From: Callorhinchus milii
Lineage: Eukaryota
Length of the DNA: 64,000 bases
Assembly (NCBI RefSeq): GCF_018977255.1
Contig: NW_024704742.1
Location: 109,370,001-109,434,000 of the forward strand
Reading direction: 5' to 3'
Shown here piece by piece: positions 1,676-41,539 of the stretch (positions are counted from its first letter, which is position 1; each line of letters opens with the position of its first letter). The position numbers and the translations under genes are program-made. A model generated the notes under the pieces. That model made no database searches and had not been told where the DNA came from. It worked only from the letters and a program-made list of their open reading frames with translations.

Positions 1676-1862
1676 GTGTCAAATTAATTTATCGGGCCTC
1701 AGTCGGGAGCATACTCACAAACTGGAGCTTAATCTGTCTGAAGGCAATGGCCGCTTGGTGCTGCTTCTTACTCTGACAGCATCGCCTCCAGTCGATATTG
1801 CCGATACATCTGTCTCCAAATTGGAGGAAGAGCAGCAACACAAGGCAATAAGGCGACGATAT
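1676..1862 (+). CDS. MCTP1: MCTP1-like internal exon (end of C2B plus linker), 187 nt, phase 2 to 0
   Basis: Acceptor tttag at 1671-1675, donor gtatgt at 1863. Translates CQINLSGLSREHTHKLELNLSEGNGRLVLLLTLTASPPVDIADTSVSKLEEEQQHKAIRRRY, matching recalled MCTP1 CQVDLSALSREQTHKLELQL...KRY. Confidence 0.92.
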
Positions 1863-2511
1863 GTATGTATTACTTTATTAATACTTGTCTGCATATCTGG
1901 GTGATATTGAAAGTTCAAACAAAGTGTTAATGTCTGAAAAGTATTCTCTTTGCACACTTGGAAGTAAGTTTAGTGTATTGAGAGCGGCTTTGAGATTGCA
2001 GCAACGGAGCATAAGACTCCTTACCAGGGGGTTGTAAGTTCAATCCCAGACTCAACTAGAATTCAAAGTGACTGTCCTCATTGGCAGCATCTCCGCTGAG
2101 CTGCTGTGATTCAACGCTATGAATGGAACTGATCTGTCGAGGAGGGGGAGGAGGGAAAAGTGCCAGGACCAAGCACAAGCACAGACTGCAGATAAGCCTG
2201 CTGCCAGTCAGCAAGCAGGGCCATGACCAAAGAGGGAGGCAGTGCAAGAGGTAGCGAAGGGAGAGGGAATGGTGCAAAGAAAATGTGGTGCAGGCGAATG
2301 CTGTGTAGGTATATAATCCATCCAGGAAATGTATAAAGGTATGTGGGGAAGGGGGGAAGGTATATACATGGATCCAGTCACTAGTTTAAGTTTCTTTAAA
2401 TATTACGAGCCCTTCAGGACACAAGTAGTACCTGCATCAAAATAGTAATTTTAAAACATTTAAAGACATGTTTTTCTTTACTCTTTATTTTATTTTCTTC
2501 ACTTCAGTTTA

Positions 2512-2785
2512 CAATAATAATCCCTGTGCTTGATATAGTGCCTTATCATGTCATTAAAATGTCTAAAAGCGCTTGACAGTTTACTGTAAAATATAGTAAA
2601 TGTATTTATTTATATAGTAGGCGAATGCAGCAGCCACTTTGCTCAAAGCAATGTCCTACAAACAGCCATGAAGTGAGTGACCAATTTTACCTTGGGTAAA
2701 ATCGCTGCTGCAATTTACTCACAAAATATACAGTAAGTTCACTTTACAGTATATTTTGTGAAGCCCTCTGAGACGACTCAACGAC
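2512..2785. mobile_element. Head-to-head pair of SINE 3' fragments
   Basis: Minus copy at 2512-2691 and plus copy at 2695-2785. Confidence 0.8.
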
Positions 2786-3131
2786 AGGTTTCAGGTCCAC
2801 ATTGCCCTTTGACAGTTTGGGGTCTAGAAGAGCTTGGGGAGATTGGGGGGCTTGTCTGCGGGCACAACCCTATAAGTGGGAACGTATTTGGTCTAATTTG
2901 GTTTATGGGGGTGAATCTCATACATTATTACATAAAAATATATATAATACATATTATGGTGACTTTGCTTATGAAGCAAAGCTGGGCAAAGTAGGCAGGG
3001 ACAGGGACGTACAACCCTGTTTATGTCAGGAGGACGTTCCCAGGCACTGGACAGCCCGCTATTTGGACCCAAGCTGGTGGTTGGGATCAGGAGGGTGGGG
3101 TAGGAGGGCGACCAAAGGAAGTACATTATAC

Positions 3132-3144
3132 TCTGATTTTTCAT
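3132..3144 (-). terminator. Partial snRNA 3' box
   Basis: Minus strand ATGAAAAATCAGA lies 8 nt past the U5 3' end. It matches the AAARNNAGA half of the 3' box; the GTTT half is degenerate. Confidence 0.45.
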
Positions 3145-3152
3145 TGGGAAGG

Positions 3153-3266
3153 AGCTCTGCTATAGCAAAGCCTAAAAAAATTAGTTTACACTCATAAACG
3201 CTCCTCTCCACGGAAACCTTTAGTAAAAGGCGAAAGATTTTTACGATCTGAAGAGAAACCAGAGCT
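3153..3266 (-). ncRNA. RNU5: U5 spliceosomal snRNA gene, full length
   Basis: Minus strand reads AGCTCTGGTTTCTCTTCAGATCGTAAAAATCTTTCGCCTTTTACTAAAGGTTTCCGTGGAGAGGAGCGTTTATGAGTGTAAACTAATTTTTTTAGGCTTTGCTATAGCAGAGCT. It has the invariant loop 1 GCCTTTTAC, stem I, an Sm-like site and the 3' hairpin GCTTTGC/GCAGAGC. Confidence 0.95.
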
Positions 3267-3305
3267 GAGGGCAGGAGCTCAACCTACACACGTCAGGCTG
3301 TCCCA

Positions 3306-3327
3306 CTCACCTCTTTGATACAGTGAG
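3306..3327 (-). promoter_or_regulatory. snRNA proximal sequence element (PSE)-like motif for U5
   Basis: Minus strand CTCACTGTATCAAAGAGGTGAG starts about 60 nt upstream of the U5 5' end and resembles the vertebrate PSE (TCACCnTnA..AAAG). Confidence 0.6.
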
Positions 3328-3474
3328 GCAAATTTCACATTTCACCATGTACGACCACGTTAAACGCAATGCAACGAGATTTCTAACCCATAGCACAAGC
3401 TTCTTCAAGGGTGCACTTGAGCACATTTGAAGAAATATTAGCAAACTAAATGTGACTGTTTAAATATTCTGACC

Positions 3475-3493
3475 TGCAAGGCTTTCTGGGTAA
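3475..3493 (-). promoter_or_regulatory. SPH (Staf/ZNF143) element of the U5 distal sequence element
   Basis: Minus strand TTACCCAGAAAGCCTTGCA matches the recalled Staf consensus YYWCCCRNMATSCMYYRCR at 18 of 19 positions. It sits at -209 to -227, the usual DSE position. Confidence 0.75.
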
Positions 3494-3531
3494 CTGTGAA
3501 GGCTCGTGTAGCTAATGGGCGCTGAGGAGAG

Positions 3532-3546
3532 GCACCAGGGGGCATC
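3532..3546 (+). promoter_or_regulatory. CTCF-like motif just upstream of the U5 promoter
   Basis: GCACCAGGGGGCATC versus the CTCF core CCACCAGGGGGCGC. Confidence 0.45.
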
Positions 3547-6500
3547 GCATAGAGCAGCTATAGCATGTACAAAGATTGGAGGTCATTTTGCTAAAATGTT
3601 AAGATATTGGCAAAGTGCGTATAAATAATACTCCACACGCCCTTCCAATCATTTTTAAAAAAACTAATAATTTCGTCACTCAATCCACGACTTCTTGTAT
3701 TATGATTATTATATCTTCTGGCCTTTGTGCATCCTAAAGTATTGATCTGGGTTTACTTTTTCGTTCGCTTTTAACATTTTATAAGTCTATTTGAGGTCTC
3801 CTCTGAATCATCTTCTCAAGACTGAAGAGCCCTAGCTTGTCAAATTGTTGCTCATAGCTCAGTTAGGCGTGAGATCAGAAAACATTTCTTCAACCACAAC
3901 AACTTGTGTTTCTGCAGCATCCTTCAAATAGAGTAATGTCTCTGAGAATTTTACAGAGGTGATGCAGGAGGAGGTGACCACAGGCACAGCCAAAGAGGTC
4001 AGCTTTTAGGTAGCTTTTGAAGATAAATAGGGAAAGAGCGAGACAGAGTCGAATTCTATAGACCTGAAACACTGTGCGTTATAACAGAGGCACCTAATAG
4101 TATGTTTTGGATCCCAATGTAATTTTTAAAATAGCAAAACAGGTAAAAATCAACAAGGGGGAGTATGGTGGCCAGTATATCAATGCTCTGTGCCACTGAA
4201 TATATTTTATATCAATTTATTTTGGTCACGGTGACTCCATCTTCTTTCATACATTTGCTCCTCTTTGTACTTCTATGGCTTTCTTGTGTCATGCCAACTC
4301 CAGGCAAAAGGGCAGCGAGGGGGCTGGATGGCAGGCACCTGCCATTGTTAACTATAAAGTGGGGTACTGGAGATGATTAGCTCACGCTGACTGGCACAGA
4401 ATTCTCCCACTTCGCTCTAGGGACATGCCTTCCACTCTCCTTGTCCTCTTGCGAGATAGCTTTGGTATGAAGGATCAGCGTCCTATAGCATTGTACATTG
4501 GGCCTCTGACAAGCTGTGCCATATGAAGTTATAGTGTTGAAAATGCAGACACTACAATACTGAATTGTACCTCATTCATTGCAGTTTTACAAAACAAGCA
4601 CAGAGAGGAGCTATTACACTGGATTTAGCTTAAAACAATCTATCCTAGGCTCTACATAATAAATAATGGTGGCATACTACAATTAAAAAGCCTTTCCCTC
4701 GAACACAGGCTGCTGTTTTACATGGCTAGACTCGGCACTCCAATGTGGCAGTTGACTCAGATCAACTGAGCTTTAAAAGTGTGAAATATTATATTAAAAT
4801 ATTCCCATTCCCTGACTGACGCGCTCTGGATAACTGAATTTAATAAAGACGTGCCTTATCAGCCTATGCAGTGAGCAGATAACATGAAGCGGTGCTACAA
4901 ATGCTTTACAATGCTCTTCAAACAGATTAACAGGGCACTTGCTGTAGCTCAGCGGTGGATTTCTCCCTGCTGTCGACACTGAATCAGCTGTTTGTCTGGG
5001 CTTGTATAAATCATAAATGAATGGCATTGTCATTTTTGTCACAAAAATACAAAACTAATGACACACTAGTACTGGTAGCTTTAAATGTTTTGAGTCTCTG
5101 AAATGTGTTTATTCCTGCAACTTGCTCCATTACATGGCTTTACCGTAGAACTCAGCAGTGTTTACGGATTAATACAAATAAACTTATTTCTATGCACTGG
5201 TGCTTTGGAAATGTTGAAATAAGCAACAAAATACACTTGGGGATGACCGAGGTTCTTACAGTAAAATGGCTTAAATCATTTGGCAAAGCTGACGACTATT
5301 TGCAGCCATGACCCCGCTATCAGATTGAGTTAGCCTAGAAAATGAGTGTATTACAGTAATTTAACCATTTGTGACCAAATGTGCAAATGCATCAAATTAA
5401 ATGGACATTTCAATTTCAGTCATTAATGTGAAAAAGCCTCTTATAATATCCCTTGATTTTCTTTAATGGGCATTAATGGATGGCAGCCAGAAGGCTATTT
5501 GGTGACCTCTTCAGAATGGGAGCACAAAACCACTGCTTCCCCCTTTGTCACTCCTTAAATTCAGAAGAGCTAGTTTAGAAAGAAGTTGTTAGCATTCCAT
5601 TTTTATTATGACATTTCACAGTCGTCCGATTTAATGTCCCTTGACCGAATTGTCCACCGTGAGACGATGGGCTTGAAATGTTATTTGGAGCATTGATAAA
5701 AGGTGAGTGGTTATAAGATGACAGCAAGTCATAAGGCTGGTGGTGTGACATTAATTTTCTCCATAACAGAGATGGAATAAGACGTCATGATGACAAGCTG
5801 TCAATCAGCGCTGGCCCCTGTGTGTATCTCGGTGCCATAGGATAGGGTATTGCTTCTCCCATAATAGACCTGAACTAGAAAGCTCTTGCTGACAGCTGCT
5901 GCCATACAGAAAATTTATTATACAGCCTTTCATTAAAAAAATAAAGAGGAATCATCTCCTGAGCATTTCAATCTTTTCTGTCTATTGAGGTCTGAAAGGA
6001 TTCATGGGAGAGAAAAAAAATTCCCTGCCATAGAAATACCAAGTGTTATATAAAAAAATTATAGGGTAGGGAGCATGGTAAATAATCAATCTATAGATAA
6101 ATGGTGAACGGGTCTGGATGCTGATAACTCACATATTAAAAAGATGCTGCTGTTTTCTAGGATAGCACTGGTACGGCATGGAGCAAACCAAGACTGTCAC
6201 AGTTTGTAATGAATTAAGTCACCAGTCAAACATAAACTGAAAATCCAAATGGTAATTAACCCTCAGGGTACTGAGAGCATTTCTGCAGAAAACCATTAAA
6301 TGTGACAAGGCTTGCAAATTTTATTTCATTGTCAGGGAGCAGAGTTTCTTATTCCCCTTCCTCTCAACCTTGTTCGTGATGATAATTCACACAGTGCTGT
6401 TTCACTCGAGATGTGAGGTTGAAAGAGTATTACCGTCTAGCTTGTAATGTTGAAGAGTTAGCTCATCTCCGAACTGCATTAAATAAAGGGGTTCGGGCTG

Positions 6501-9500
6501 AAAGCTGCCCTCCCCCCGGCCCATCGGTGGGGTGAGAAGCTTTTCTTGAAGTAATTTGCACCAAAGCACATGCAGTAGGTTCTTGATATAGATCACTCAT
6601 TCTAAAATCTCCTTAGAACAAATTTAAAATTATCCTCGGATGTGGTGAATTCTTGTTACATGAATAACCATTTTTCCACAAAATGAATTCACTGAAATTC
6701 AGAATACTCACATTTTAGAATCTAGGTAAGTTTGTCGTAAGTCATACAATTTTGAAATAAAATCTAAATGATAAACTCCTTCATGACCGATTGCTTGGGG
6801 CTTTCTGTAAGTTGAGAATGTTTTACAGCACACTACACAGTGCAAAGGAAGACTGTGTAAACTTGGTGAAATGTGCAACCTTGCCAAAATATGAGCAAAT
6901 CTACAATCGAAAGTAAGAATATTTATTCAAGTCAAGTGGTTATACTATTGGATTTCAGACCAATAGTAAATGATTTTACAGTTTTTTGTGGACTTAACTG
7001 GAATATTAACTGACTGAGCTTTCTGATGAAATTCTTAAAGGGGCATTATAATCTCATTAGAGAATTTCAGTTCGGCTCAATTCCTGGATTAGTTTGGAAC
7101 AACCTACTTTGAAATCTCAGTTTCCTCAGGTGCACAGCAAGTTTTTTGTAGATACTGTAACTGCCATTGTCTGATCCTTTAAAGAAAGTTGCTTTCAAAC
7201 ATATTTTTTTTAAAAAAGTCTGTAATCTTAAAAATGAGTTCCTCCTCCACTTATATTCATGTTACCCTGCCCTGTTTAATGATGGTCATAAATATAGTGC
7301 ATCCAGTTTAAAAGCATGTCTGTATTCTGAATACCGGGCATTCATTTCTTAATGTCAGCCCAGTTATTTTTATGATGTCTGCCCAAAATTTAGTCAATGA
7401 ATGCTTTATAATATTGTGTACAATGTGTCTATTAGATATTGTGTGTCACACACAGACCTAAATGTAAAGAAAAATCATTTAACTTACCGTGCAATGTTAT
7501 CTTTCACCCTTCAGACACTAGCAAGAGACTGGTTGCCTGAATTAGTAATTATGAATCGAACTTACAGCAACTTAAACTAATAACTGGATGAAGTGATTTA
7601 TAATTTGGAAGACTGTCATTTTGGCTCATTTAAATTTGGGCACTCTTCAATTTCTGGAGAGGCTTCAGATACAATTTTGTTAAGCTGGCTAGCCCTGAGG
7701 ATGTGAAAAGGATCACTGGTGTAGCTTTGTTTTGTCACACAGCAGTTATTTCTCATTTTACTTACAGACTTCAACACAAAAGATACTTGTGCTTTGTTTC
7801 AATGCAGGTCCTCAATACTTTATTTCTTTTTCCCGTTTCAAGCAAAGAATGAAAACAGTGCTTTGTTTATTTAACATTTTGCACATTAGAGTGTTGGTAA
7901 ATTCTTTTTAATTGGTGAAACTTTCATGGCAGAGCAGAAAAAGTGTATTCTTTATGCTTAATTTATTTGTGTCATAGATTGAGGTGCACATTGGCAGTTG
8001 TTTGTAAAAGCAAATTGTGCATTTGTGCAGTGCATTTTTCTATTTTTTGGTTGGAAAAAACAATTGGGTTTCCTGTCCCAGCTTATTTTTATTAATAATA
8101 GTAACAACAATTATTTAAAAACTTGCATTTGATATTGTGCCTTTTGTGTTGGAGGTTGACACAAAACACTTCACAGCAATTTACTGCAAAGTGTAGTGAC
8201 TGCATTTTACCAGTGATTATTTTCCCTTCATTGAGTGTTTTTAAATAATCAAATCACCATGTCTGCTTCTCAGAAGTGTAAACCAATTCCAAAGAAAGCC
8301 TGATTAGATCACTTGGTGGAATCCATTTAGAATCAAAATTGTTGGAAAACAGATTTTCACACCATTTAAATTTTCTGGCACGTGATTAAGATTTTGTGCT
8401 AATACTAACATTAAAATTACATCCTTGCTTCGATGATACCTTAGTTTGAATTTTCCAGTGAAATATCTGAAATACATTTCTGTTTACACTGTACTCCTTC
8501 ATTGATGTAATCTACATTATTAAAATCTCCATCACTGGTATAAATCGGAATGAAACATTAACTTATATTTGATATTAAAAATTATGGTTCGTGTAAAATT
8601 TTATTATTTGAATTTTTTTTCATTGCATAATGATACCCCACAAATAATTGCAAGCAAACTTGGATTAGTCTAGTGAAATTTGCTAGCGTTCCAAAATACT
8701 GAACCATTTCCTATTGATTTTTAATGTCTAATGTTCAATTTTCTGTGTTATTAGAACTCATTTAATTTTCTACATTTTGACAGGCTGAAGGTCTTTTGCT
8801 AGCCACAACTAACCTCAATTTCACATGCAGCAACATACTTAAATCTTTCATTAGACCCATAAATGTATTAGCATGTGAATAGCCTTGACCTTGGAGTTAA
8901 TCCTTTAATCCCTTCACACCTGTTTTGCAACATTTTGACAACATTCTTCCTCGTTTCTTTATTTTATCTTGTATTGCAGTGCACTCATGTTCAGCATGGA
9001 ACTGCTTTTCCACAGTTTTACATTTCCAGTACTTATCAGGGGCACACACTCAAGAGGAATGCATTGAAGATGTAGGGTACTATGAAAGCTCATCTCGTCA
9101 GAAAAATGCTATTTCATATTTACAATCACAAGCATTTAGGACTGCTTCAGGAGCTCGCAGTATGATATGTACACTGGATAGATTAGCAAACTAAATTAAA
9201 ATATGTTCATTTGCAATAGTGAGAATAGGGTGGTGGACTGTAAATTTGTACACTCAAAAGGACAATTGCCCATGCAGTGAGAGAACAAGCTTCCAGCAAA
9301 ATGAATGGGGAAGGGGGTGGGGAGGAGGGGTTTTGTCTTTGGAGAAACTATACACGAGTGTATAACCCTTTTAAGTAGAATGGACTGGCGGACACCTGGC
9401 TCTTTTTAATTTTCTTTGATTGCTTTATTTTATTTCCAGTTCTTTTTCTCTTAGTACCATAGGCTACTTAATGTCCTACATTTGGTTGGCAAATTAGGTC

Positions 9501-10599
9501 TGATAATAAGAGGGTTCTGTGGCATTCGTTCAAACCCTTCAGATTTAAATTGCAATGAGACAGTGAAAATATATTTAAAAATGCATTGTATTTTATCAAA
9601 CACGGTGCTGTCTTTCGGTGATAATACTGAATAATAATACAATAATATGATAATAATGCAGTAAAACTGAATCTCTCAAAAAGCAGTTGACAAAATATTT
9701 TTAGCAGCAAGAAATCAAAGCCATTGTAAGGCTGTTATGGAAAACAAAGTTTATTTGTATGCAGTTATAAGTGCACAATTGGTTGAGGGGCTCACAATAT
9801 CAGTGGTACACAATGTAACAGGAAAGTTAGAGATTTATTGGCAAGAGAGAGCGAGAAGAGAGTGAGGTCTGACAAGCACACGTAACGCAGTCAGGGTCCA
9901 GGCCAGATTACTAACAAGATTTCATTCAAACCAGTTGTAAAGAAAGACTTGTTTTGTTGTTTGATATACAGCATATACCTCAGCAACAAGTTGAAGATAT
10001 TTTTCTACTGACTTGATATTTGAGATTTACTGACGTGAAAGTTGCTATAGCAAATATAAGGATTATTCTTATTATAATTATAAGAGAGAAAAAGAGAGAA
10101 TTAAACTTCATTTAATAAATCACAACACAGAGAAAGAGAGAGAATGAAACATGTTTGCACTGTTATTAGCATAGCCTTTGTATTATGCACCAAAAGCCTT
10201 TAAATATTTAAGATGAGAAATCCCGTTCTGCAAATGATTGAGGTAATACAAGGGGAAATTGTCCCAAGACTGATTTGCACTATGCGTGACCCCTTCAATA
10301 TTGAAAGGAATAAAAGCTTCAGTGCCTGAGTCCATCACAAGCCACCTTACCCGGAAACATATTAAGAGTATGTAATGGTTCATAAAATAGTTGTGCTGTA
10401 GTAAAGAAGAGTTTTTAGCATCAAATAAACACGATATTAACTATCCTATTTAAAATAGTTTCCCGTTTTCCGGTACGCTGCAGATTTTCTTTTGTATCAG
10501 TATGATGATAGATGCAACAAGTGGATAGAATTGGCATGAGACAGAGTGAAGTAAGTTTCCGAAATTATTTGTACCAATTCTCTCATCACTTCCTTGCTT

Positions 10600-10910
10600 G
10601 ACATCATTGGCTGTTGCTGGGGTACAGTTCTGCTGTTGCCATCTGGCTCTTTACCCAAAGGGCATTCTTTGTTTGTGACCCAACTCCGTGAGTGGTGTCA
10701 AGCTGTTCAACGTTGGGGGGCACCACAGCCACGCCAATCCTGATCTAACCACATAAACATTCCAACAGAGCTCATTAGATACCACTCTGTTCCCCTCTCC
10801 TTTTGGTGGTCAATTATAGTTGCACTTCTATTCTCTCTTGACTGAGATCAACTTACTCCCTATGGACTGGGAATCAAACCTATAACTTTCTGGTATGTAT
10901 TGCTCAGCTG
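10600..10910 (-). mobile_element. Ancient AmnSINE2-like element
   Basis: ctggggtacagttc..cccaaagggcattctt..gtgagtggtgtcaagctgttcaac..gagatcaacttactc..gggaatcaaacct resembles the recalled AmnSINE2 consensus and is mutually similar to the 35090 and 39720 copies. Confidence 0.55.
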
Positions 10911-13900
10911 GATAAAGTCATACAGTCATACAGTCCTCTATCTTGTCAGAGGGGAGGTGTTACTATCAATACCATTAATACACTCAATGTGATTAAGAAA
11001 TCTTGTCTAATGCAAGTATTTCATTTCAATATAAACTATTATTTAATTGTCAGGTTTGGGTACTTCACATTTTGTTTTTAAATGGACCCGTATTTTCATT
11101 AAACAGTGAGGTTTGCACTAACATACCCACAAAACATTCAGGAAATTGCCTCAAATGCTAAATATCACATGATAGAAGCTTTATGACTCCTCGGGCTCTT
11201 TATGACAGTATCTCTTTTAATACAAACTGAATTGTGACTCCATGCAGTATTTGAATTCTACTATAGGTTATCTTTTGTATTACATTTGGAGTAAATGGTT
11301 ACTGTGGGAACCTGTTAAAATTCAGACTGGAACTGTCTCCTCTTTATTGTACACTTCATAGTGGATAAGCTTCCAACTTGGTACTGTGCATAACTAGACA
11401 GAACCTAGATTGCTTTAAAAGTGCCTTGTGCAGATCTGAGTTTTTGATCCTGTGAAATGCTGCACAGTCTCTTTAAACAAATAGCTGAGCACATACAAAT
11501 CTCCTGCCCTGTAAAGATGCTTTCATTTAGAAAGTGCCGCTTTATATCTGCAATAATAGGACCTTTTAGAACAGATTAAGCAAAGAAGTATGACATCATA
11601 TTGCATAGTGTGGATGTTAATGAAATATGAGAGGTCAAACTGGTCTGTTTGGTCGAACAATTAAAAGATTAACAAGAGGTAAACTCAGAATAAGGATGTT
11701 GATTTGTGCTGCATACATGATCTAGCAGAATTCTGCATAAATGTTAAAACTATTGGGAAGATCAGCAATCTTGCAGCAATTGCATGATTTGCAAAAGGAA
11801 TTTTAATAACAAATTCCAGATATGTCCCAGGGTGTCCCTCTGAAATTCCACTCAGATGCCAAACTAAGTTTCAACTTCTGTGAAGTTGGGTGTCTGTCTG
11901 AGCAGAGTTCCAGAGAATCGTCTAAAATATGCTAGTTATGAATGCTTTTGCCATTCACTTTATTAGACTCTGGCACAGTAAGTCTACACTGGTAAATGGT
12001 TTAACTGCAGACAGTGCTGCAAAGATTTTTCAGATTTGAAGATCTAACTTATAATTACAAAACAAATACAATACAAATTTAGATTTATATATCACTTTTC
12101 GTGGGAGGATGTCTGAAGGCGCTTAACAATCCTGGTTTGGCCCACGAGTTGGGGATGGGAGCCGAGAGGGGAGGGGAAAGATGACTGAAAGCACGTCTGT
12201 TCTAATGGGGGTGGGGGAGAAACAAATGAATGTCTTGCAGCGAGAACAGATGAGTGATAGCAAATGTGGTTAGACTGTAGATCAGCTCAGCTTGTATAGA
12301 AACATAGACATTTCAGTCACAGAAAGGGGCAATTTGACTCATTGTGTCTTTGCACTGTTACTATTTTTCTAAATCACCTTTTTAATAATCCCACATTCTG
12401 GCTCTCTCCCCTAATGCTTTCTTAATCATTAAAGATACAAGGGTAAGACCTTGGAACTCAAATGTTAAAGTGAAAACATTAAAGAATAATGATTAGGTGC
12501 ACGTCTAAATTAACTTTCACTCTGTCTCTGTAATATAAAGTAGTACAGTACAAATTTATATAATTTTATATTCATATTATTTACATATTTAATATAGAAA
12601 TAATTCATATAGCGTTTTTAGCATCCCGAGGGACTGGACAGTCTACGATTTGTGCATGAGTTGGGGTGGGGGTCAAGAGGGTTGCTATTGAACAAGTGCT
12701 TTCTCTCAAAACACTTTACATTATGGAATAAAACAAGAATGTAGGCTTTTGCTTTGATTATGACTGAACGTTCCATTTAACTATAGTTTGCATATAAGTA
12801 ATAATAATCCTTCCATTTGATATAGCACTTTTCACATTGTGGGGACGTCTCAGTGCTTCACAGGATTTAATGTAATTTGTAGGTGAATGCAGCAGCTAAT
12901 TTAGGCATAGCCCCATAATATATGAATGGTAGATCACAGTCCAGACCTAGACCATCTTTTTGGCCAACGAGTGTATTCTATAGCGTCTTCGTAAATATAA
13001 AGCTTTCGTAGTCTTAATATTGCATTTTCCACTTACAGATACTTTCACATTTGATTTGGTTTGCACATCATCCAGGACTCATCACTACATATTCTTAAAG
13101 CACTATTTCCATTGATGCTTTGAACATTGAAATGTGTTCAGTGAGCTTACATTAACCTTTGGAGCACAATGCAGACACAATGAGAACCCGTTTCTGAGCA
13201 GACCAGTTCTGTTCATTTTCAACTTGTGCGCTGTGATGCTGAAAAATATAATACAGTATTAATCCTTCTCAGTAAGAGACCAACCACAAGTTAGTACTAC
13301 TAATAATAAATTATTGTTAATAAAGCTTCAAAATCATCGGAGTACTTTTGTTATAATAATTCTAAACTAACATTAAATATAACAACACGTTTTTAAACAA
13401 AAACACATTTTAAAATATTCACCTGCTCTTGTCCTTTTTTCTTTATTTTCTTCTTTATTTTCTTTACGCTAAATCCCTTTTGAATTTTATTTTTGATTAT
13501 TTTTCACCTTCCTCTGGCTTCTCTTTTGACCCACTTCTATCATTAAAGGCTGATTCCTAACTTTCAGTTCCCAGAGACCACTTTGGAATATGGGAGCAAT
13601 GTATTTGTATGTGGGGGTGAGATACCAGAGAGAGCTCTTTCGTCCCTACCCCAGTAAAAAGAAAACAGGGAGGAAAAAAATGCCTTTGGGGAAGAGGACA
13701 AAAATTGGAGGACAAATATTGCTAGGAAAATAAAGTAGTGGCTCTGCTTCCTCCAAGGTGTTCTTTCATTCCACCTCCATACAGAATAGAAATCCAAGAC
13801 AACTGCTAAAGAGATTGGGAAGGTCCTGCTGGCAATCCCCTTCTGCCAGGCAGTCGTTTGCTACCGAGCAGTAGTACTGAGTCAGAAAAGGTGGAAATTG

Positions 13901-14443
13901 CCCTATAGGCATGGCAACGGATGAAGTACTATTACCTGGCACAAAGCCTATTTAAGGTAGCACAAGTTGCTGGAAATCCAGTGCGTCTTTTACAAGGATT
14001 TTCCGAACAAATAAAATATAGAAACGTTACATCCAGATATTAGGAATTTTACCCTTTAAGACCATTTATATTTTGAGCGTAAATAATACAATTTATATCA
14101 TCTAGCAACATATATAATAAATTATTGATACACTTTCCAGTACCCCAAAGGATACTCTATTTTATATAATGTGAATTAATTGTAAAACCAGAGGTAGTTT
14201 TCTGTTATCTAATGTAACTATGTGAAGCAAATGATAAATTCCTGAATGAGTTCTGGTGAAGGAGAACATCAAATATTTAAAATCACATTTGGTTCAGAAT
14301 GAACTGCAAAACTGTTGACTTGACACACAGTGTCTTGGTGTGGAAATAGCATAATGTAAGCAACAAAGAGGCAGATTGCATGGAACATTCTAATGGAGCA
14401 ATCGAGAAAAGTAACACTTATAATTCATTATTACTTTTTCCAG

Positions 14444-37974: not shown

Positions 37975-38181
37975 TGAGCAGGATTAGAATTGCAACAGCC
38001 CATTATCAGTAGTGTAACACTAACTTGTCTCGTGATGGTCCTAACCCAACCCAGCTCATGGTCTCTATTAATGTATGACCAATCAAATATTGGTGAATTG
38101 TGTTTCACAATAATAGGAAGAACCGACATTGACAGATCAAAAACCAACATCGCTATGAACATTCGCTTGCCACAAGCCAGT
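37975..38181 (-). pseudogene. Decayed 28S rRNA fragment (peptidyl-transferase region up to the sarcin-ricin helix)
   Basis: Minus strand ACTGGCTTGTGGC..GTTCATAGCGATGTTGGTTTTTGATC..ATGTCGGTTCTTCCTAT..AATTCACCAA..GAGCTGGGTT..GAGACAAGTTAGTGTTACACTACTGAT..AATCCTGCTCA is colinear with the conserved eukaryotic LSU rRNA but carries many substitutions. Confidence 0.9.
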
Positions 38182-41244: not shown

Positions 41245-41539
41245 TAATAATAACCTTTGCATTTGATATAGCGCTTTTCACGTCTTCTCGACATCTCAAA
41301 GCGCTTCACAGAATATGCTGTAAAGTGAATTGGCGAAATGCGGCAGCCAATTGCACACAGCAGTATCCCACAAACAGTCGTGGATTGAAAATGACCAATT
41401 TATTATTGTTTTGGAGGGATTATTATTAGGCGTGTGGAGTAAGGAAACTTGCCCAAGGTTTCGCCCTGACCTGCCTGGAATTGAACCCAGGTCTCTCACT
41501 TGCCAGGCGAGTGCTCTAACCGCTGAGCTACAGGACTCC
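41245..41539 (-). mobile_element. Full-length tRNA-derived SINE (Deu-like core, L2-type tail)
   Basis: Minus strand GGAGTCCTG, A box TAGCTCAGCGG, B box GGTTCAATTCC, core GACTGTTTGTGGGATACTGCTGTGTGCAATTGGCTGCCGC, tail GTGAAAAGCGCTATATCAAATGCAA(TTA)n. Confidence 0.92.

Follow-up and report, generated by a model that had tools for sequence, protein, structure and literature searches.

The 64,000-nt window analyzed here, by which we mean the whole stretch of Callorhinchus milii DNA from positions 109,370,001-109,434,000 of contig NW_024704742.1 (assembly GCF_018977255.1, forward strand), carries a full-length U5 snRNA sequence antisense within an intron of MCTP1. Judging from its sequence, this locus is probably a bona fide, independently transcribed Pol II U5 snRNA gene with an enhancer of the ZNF143-only kind, and its best explanation would be that of one member of a dispersed U5 multigene family. 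We favor a true gene because of one significant promoter element, an SPH (Staf/ZNF143) site, together with an intact RNA structure and a mild retention of CpG. What is established for the locus is its RNA, in sequence and structure, along with the SPH site, the host gene and the orientation. On the opposite side, we counted two private positions in the RNA (26 and 50), a modest fold score, the absence of an octamer, a PSE-like motif and a 3' box at background level, and a flanking direct repeat. An earlier note on this DNA had proposed an apparently complete and self-promoted unit; a self-promoted gene is still the best reading, but the full set of elements did not hold, as neither the PSE nor the 3' box stands out statistically, there is no octamer and a repeat resembling a target-site duplication (TSD) is present. 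The coordinates of all features are listed in Table 1.

Table 1. Features of the U5 locus and of its host gene. Coordinates are those of the 64,000-nt window; positions with a minus sign are relative to the first nucleotide of U5.
Feature	Coordinates	Strand	Basis
MCTP1 coding exon, upstream of host intron	1676..1862	+	Identity to UniRef C. milii MCTP1 at 62/62 residues
MCTP1 host intron, GT-AG, 12,581 nt	1863..14443	+	Mapping of UniRef C. milii MCTP1 protein
3' half of 3' box, 7/8; GTTY half missing	3132..3139	-	Not beyond chance
Right copy of direct repeat; includes the last 5 nt of U5	3146..3157	-	Sequence
3' terminal stem-loop	3152..3172	-	Rfam alignment, MFE fold
Full-length U5 snRNA coding region, with stems Ia, Ib and Ic, loop I, Sm site and 3' stem-loop	3153..3266	-	Rfam RF00020
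Sm site, run of 7 U	3172..3182	-	Sequence, Rfam alignment
Loop I (exon-aligning loop), identical to Rfam consensus	3222..3232	-	Rfam alignment
Left copy of TSD-like direct repeat (11/12); its end lies 2 nt short of +1	3269..3280	-	Sequence
PSE-like motif starting at -60, 8/12 informative positions	3309..3326	-	Consensus score, not beyond chance alone
SPH / Staf-ZNF143 site, -227 to -209	3475..3493	-	17/18 informative positions, 1 mismatch
CTCF-like site upstream of SPH, 12/14	3532..3545	+	Pattern match

Mapping of the MCTP1 protein, which has three C2 domains, onto the window showed that the MCTP host proposed earlier is MCTP1, transcribed from the plus strand, with U5 antisense in its intron and 1,290 nt between the upstream exon and the 3' end of U5. 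The idea that U5 opposes host transcription is thus borne out as a statement of orientation, a layout that has precedent, and extends no further; any interference of U5 with MCTP1 transcription is speculation. Because of the antisense orientation, U5 could not be excised from the MCTP1 pre-mRNA, and it would therefore need a promoter of its own. Two other RNA-like sequences were observed in the window. A decayed 160-nt fragment of 28S rRNA (38022-38181, minus strand; Rfam LSU, 91.7 bits, many broken pairs) lies in another MCTP1 intron, and a tRNA-like sequence (41466-41537, minus strand; Rfam 50.2 bits, tRNA-Ala by ARAGORN) adjoins members of the repeat families of the window and is probably the head of a SINE.

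The presence of a full-length U5 on the minus strand was confirmed by an Rfam search, in which RF00020 matched 3153-3267 over model positions 1-117 of 117 with 94.1 bits (gathering score 40) and 0 non-standard pairs. We kept the narrower bounds given in Table 1 since the first column of the Rfam model lies one base before the AG start. No second U5-like copy was found by this search in the 64-kb window. Stems Ib and Ic of the window copy comprise 19 pairs, each of them standard. The minimum free energy fold was only mildly better than that of shuffled sequences (z = -1.57). The gene also keeps four CpGs (observed/expected ratio (o/e) 0.92). The RNA looks functional, with a loop I of consensus sequence and with the Sm site and 3' hairpin in place.

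For comparison, a metagenome collection was scanned with an 18-nt U5 motif, which returned 54 loci. About 15 represented complete or cut-off U5 genes, none of the vertebrate type, about eight were 3'-truncated fragments and the remainder were chance matches; no vertebrate promoter was seen among the 54. Twelve full-length copies were scored with Rfam, and 10 of these, after omission of two near-duplicates, were aligned with the window copy; these 10 are of a non-vertebrate type. The window copy had the highest score of the 13 (67.7-92.7 bits for the others). It differs from 10/10 aligned copies at position 26, in an internal loop, and at position 50, the sole change in a stem (U-A to U-G). The 11-row alignment gave no significant covariation (55/500 shuffles).

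Two further patterns were observed in this collection. The 3'-truncated fragments (L002, L010, L014, L024, L026, L044, L047, and L050) end after about 25-33 nt and are partly alike in their flanks; they are possibly insertions of a retroelement targeting U5. In L008, L011, L013, L019, L029, L030, L041, L042, and others, a conserved block upstream of U5 starts near -63 and is a clear lineage-specific PSE of these non-vertebrate U5 genes.

The two private substitutions could also be read as marks of decay, with the locus being a silent or weakly expressed duplicate that was copied at the DNA level along with its promoter and is now eroding, its octamer lost, its PSE and 3' box degraded and the SPH left as the best-preserved remnant. 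The accessible text of PMC13484765 adds weight to this possibility in that, even in humans, there is as yet no solution to telling expressed snRNA genes and pseudogenes apart from their sequence. However, no base pair is broken, loop I is unharmed, as is the Sm site, the Rfam score exceeds those of all the comparison copies and four CpGs of the gene are retained, and we consider such a decaying copy unlikely.

Promoter elements were scored against the consensus sequences in the available part of Guiro and Murphy 2017 (PMC5493778). Among the elements claimed for this locus, only the SPH is clearly beyond chance. It is the sole match with one mismatch in 64 kb (0.06 expected), its score was reached by 0/5867 background anchors, and the chance of such a site is ~2e-4 in a 230-nt search zone on both strands, so that the Staf/ZNF143 site announced at -209 to -227 was upheld. 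In the accessible text of James Faresse et al. 2012 (PMC3499247), the Z motif of the human U5 loci starts between -196 and -222 and has one orientation in 8/8 loci; the window SPH has the same orientation and its equivalent start is at -226. By eye, 15 of 17 bases are also alike between the window SPH and the ZNF143-occupied site of 7SK.

As had been reported, no perfect octamer is present in the DSE, where the best match between -260 and -190 was 5/8, whereas in the human U5 loci an octamer abuts the Z motif in 8/8 (PMC3499247, available part). Octamer-like words at -178 (6/8) and at -67 (7/8) are at chance level. The latter (3326-3333) adjoins the 5' end of the PSE-like motif. An octamer in the DSE is usual rather than obligatory. 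In the accessible portion of PMC11541246, the scoring of U6 promoters from Fugu and tilapia gave an SPH and a PSE and no octamer, and SPH and OCT "may exist together or separately"; according to the excerpted text of PMC8041756, one tilapia PSE shares only 60% likeness with the vertebrate consensus. In view of these examples, a missing octamer and a weak PSE would not be fatal to a promoter in fish.

A PSE-like motif is indeed found near -60, where the essential core promoter element of such units is expected, but it is not beyond chance, since its score of 8/12 was reached by 1331/5867 background anchors (23%) when the start was allowed to vary over an 18-position window, and by 6.9% in a 5-position window. 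Given how common this score is among background anchors, the motif alone proves nothing. The best PSE match falls exactly at -60, as judged with a human consensus that may not hold for chondrichthyans, and 11 distant and partly redundant U5 genes reached 7-9/12 against the same consensus, six of them scoring 8 at -60. The partial 3' box described downstream fared similarly: against GTTYN0-3AARRYAGA it is present at 8/12, a score reached by 4432/5867 background anchors (76%), and its 3' half taken separately was equaled by 675/5867. A matrix built from the human PSE and 3' box alignments (PMC3499247, Figures S5 and S6) might change these scores. A 9-nt word at 3300-3308 (minus strand), just downstream of the PSE-like motif, recurs in the human "U2 PSE" forward primer of Table 1 in the available part of PMC9138887; it was noticed by eye and may be due to chance. 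A PSE and a 3' box that score no better than chance, together with the absent octamer, are what a duplicate decaying along with its promoter would display, and they speak for that reading beside the two substitutions. Near -25, no TATA box rose above background (best 4/6), and this fits Pol II rather than Pol III.

The site beyond the SPH, which we take to be CTCF-like, is present at 12/14 as described, but such matches are not beyond chance (6 in the window against 5.3 expected); its 12-nt core is unique in the window (0.06 expected), this core having been trimmed after the site was seen. CpG retention is mild, with an o/e of 0.58 over 3000-3700, a value reached by 27/619 windows, against 0.31 for the whole window. 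About 400 nt upstream of U5, the unique sequence yields to a LINE remnant (~3690-3850, minus strand), presumably CR1-like, that encodes a frameshifted ORF2 C-terminus, and the promoter would therefore be compact.

The flanks of U5 gave a mixed answer to the claim that traces of retrotransposition are lacking. No poly(A) tail was found, with no run of A above 5 in the 40 nt that follow U5, in line with the earlier note. In contrast, its statement that no target-site duplication is evident was not confirmed, as an imperfect 11/12 direct repeat flanks U5. With a loose test (gap of at most 3 nt, set after the repeat had been seen), 6/2100 random anchors and 1/841 GC-rich swaps were as good; with strict adjacency (11/14), these numbers rose to 73/2100 and 16/841. 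The chance of a TSD-like repeat is thus 0.3-3.5%, and 0/12 comparison U5 loci reached the loose or the strict repeat score.

This repeat keeps alive two readings in which the locus descends from a retrocopy. In the first, it would be a dead, tailless copy of mature U5, primed by 5-nt microhomology at its 3' end and bounded by a 12-14-nt TSD, with the SPH and CTCF motifs belonging to an unrelated neighboring element. Both copies of the repeat are in the right places for this and the left one is preceded by TT, but the next bases, compared by eye, match WAAAAWW at 1/7 and the repeat does not fit the L1 target consensus. Furthermore, in the accessible text of PMC5322556 the only animals with tailless copies detected were therian mammals and a lizard, the loose version of the repeat test was defined once the repeat was known while the strict version gave 3.5%, and the sole SPH of the 64 kb would have to lie at a U5-typical distance and orientation by chance (~2e-4 or less). 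This last probability is 14 to 170 times below the one that a true gene would show the repeat (3e-3 to 3.5e-2). Because an SPH by chance is rarer than a repeat by chance, and because the truncation, WAAAAWW target and taxa of tailless retrocopies are not matched, the repeat is probably coincidental, and a dead retrocopy appears very improbable.

The second reading, to which we give the least credence of all, is that a U5 retrocopy became a live gene, having landed beside, or later gained, an open site bound by ZNF143 and CTCF and a makeshift PSE. The 12-nt repeat would then be a true target-site duplication, the enhancer would be octamer-free and a variant U5 would be produced. This scenario explains jointly why a repeat and a strong SPH are present, why the octamer is missing and why the PSE and 3' box are weak. 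It requires, however, either an insertion at the correct promoter spacing or the de novo assembly of a promoter, and a simpler reading exists for each of these oddities. As a rule, when an snRNA depends on an external promoter, its retrocopies are dead from the outset. A revived retrogene would break this rule, and only this unlikely outcome would be a surprise.

If the locus is the true gene that we favor, we infer each step of binding and transcription from what is established for vertebrate snRNA genes (PMC5493778). ZNF143/Staf would bind the SPH near -220, which would act as a distal enhancer with no adjacent Oct-1 site, and SNAPc would bind a lineage-diverged PSE at -60. Pol II would initiate at 3266 and Integrator would cleave the transcript behind a weak 3' box. 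The U5 RNA may then gain its Sm ring and trimethyl cap and join the U4/U6.U5 tri-snRNP. A search of sequencing runs for the 64-kb sequence listed 24 runs, of which 20 contained part of it and five contained half or more of its words; the seven with shares of at least 0.36 were all from one species (three studies), and no RNA run containing it was among those listed, which speaks neither for nor against expression. A live gene would provide one annotated U5 locus in a slowly evolving cartilaginous fish and a data point on the evolution of snRNA promoters, with ZNF143 acting at a promoter that has no Oct-1 site when both sites are adjacent in human. It would help annotation and the reconstruction of the U5 promoter ancestral to jawed vertebrates; no concept would be changed.

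A literature search, most subscription papers lying outside its reach, found no published account of this U5 locus. The layout of a self-promoted snRNA gene placed antisense in a host intron is already known from RNU4ATAC, which lies on the strand opposite CLASP1, in CLASP1 intron 2 (PMC12703291, accessible part), and many snRNA genes sit inside the introns of protein-coding genes (PMC13484765, available text). Like the window U5, RNU4ATAC is a spliceosomal snRNA gene antisense in a host intron; it has its own Pol II snRNA promoter and is bound by SNAPc, ZNF143, and POU2F1 (PMC3499247, accessible text). The two cases differ in the snRNA and the host, and RNU4ATAC is single-copy, has proven expression and carries a perfect octamer.

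As judged from its sequence, the window locus shows the features that define U5, and some of those that define a Pol II snRNA unit. The closest counterparts are the human RNU5A-1, RNU5B-1, RNU5D-1, RNU5E-1, RNU5F-1, and U5-like loci, which in the available part of PMC3499247 are likewise full-length U5 sequences in dispersed single genes. The window locus differs from them in that its PSE and 3' box fit the human consensus at chance level only, and in carrying two substitutions relative to the comparison set.

The tailless retropseudogenes described in the available text of Noll et al. 2015 (PMC5322556) resemble the window U5 in having no poly(A) tail and in their direct repeats of 8-35 nt, with at least 70% identity and a right copy overlapping the RNA at its 3' end. 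In that text they are 3'-truncated, have TT/WAAAAWW targets and were seen only in therians and a lizard, whereas the window U5 is of full length, is flanked by a GC-rich repeat and has an SPH upstream.
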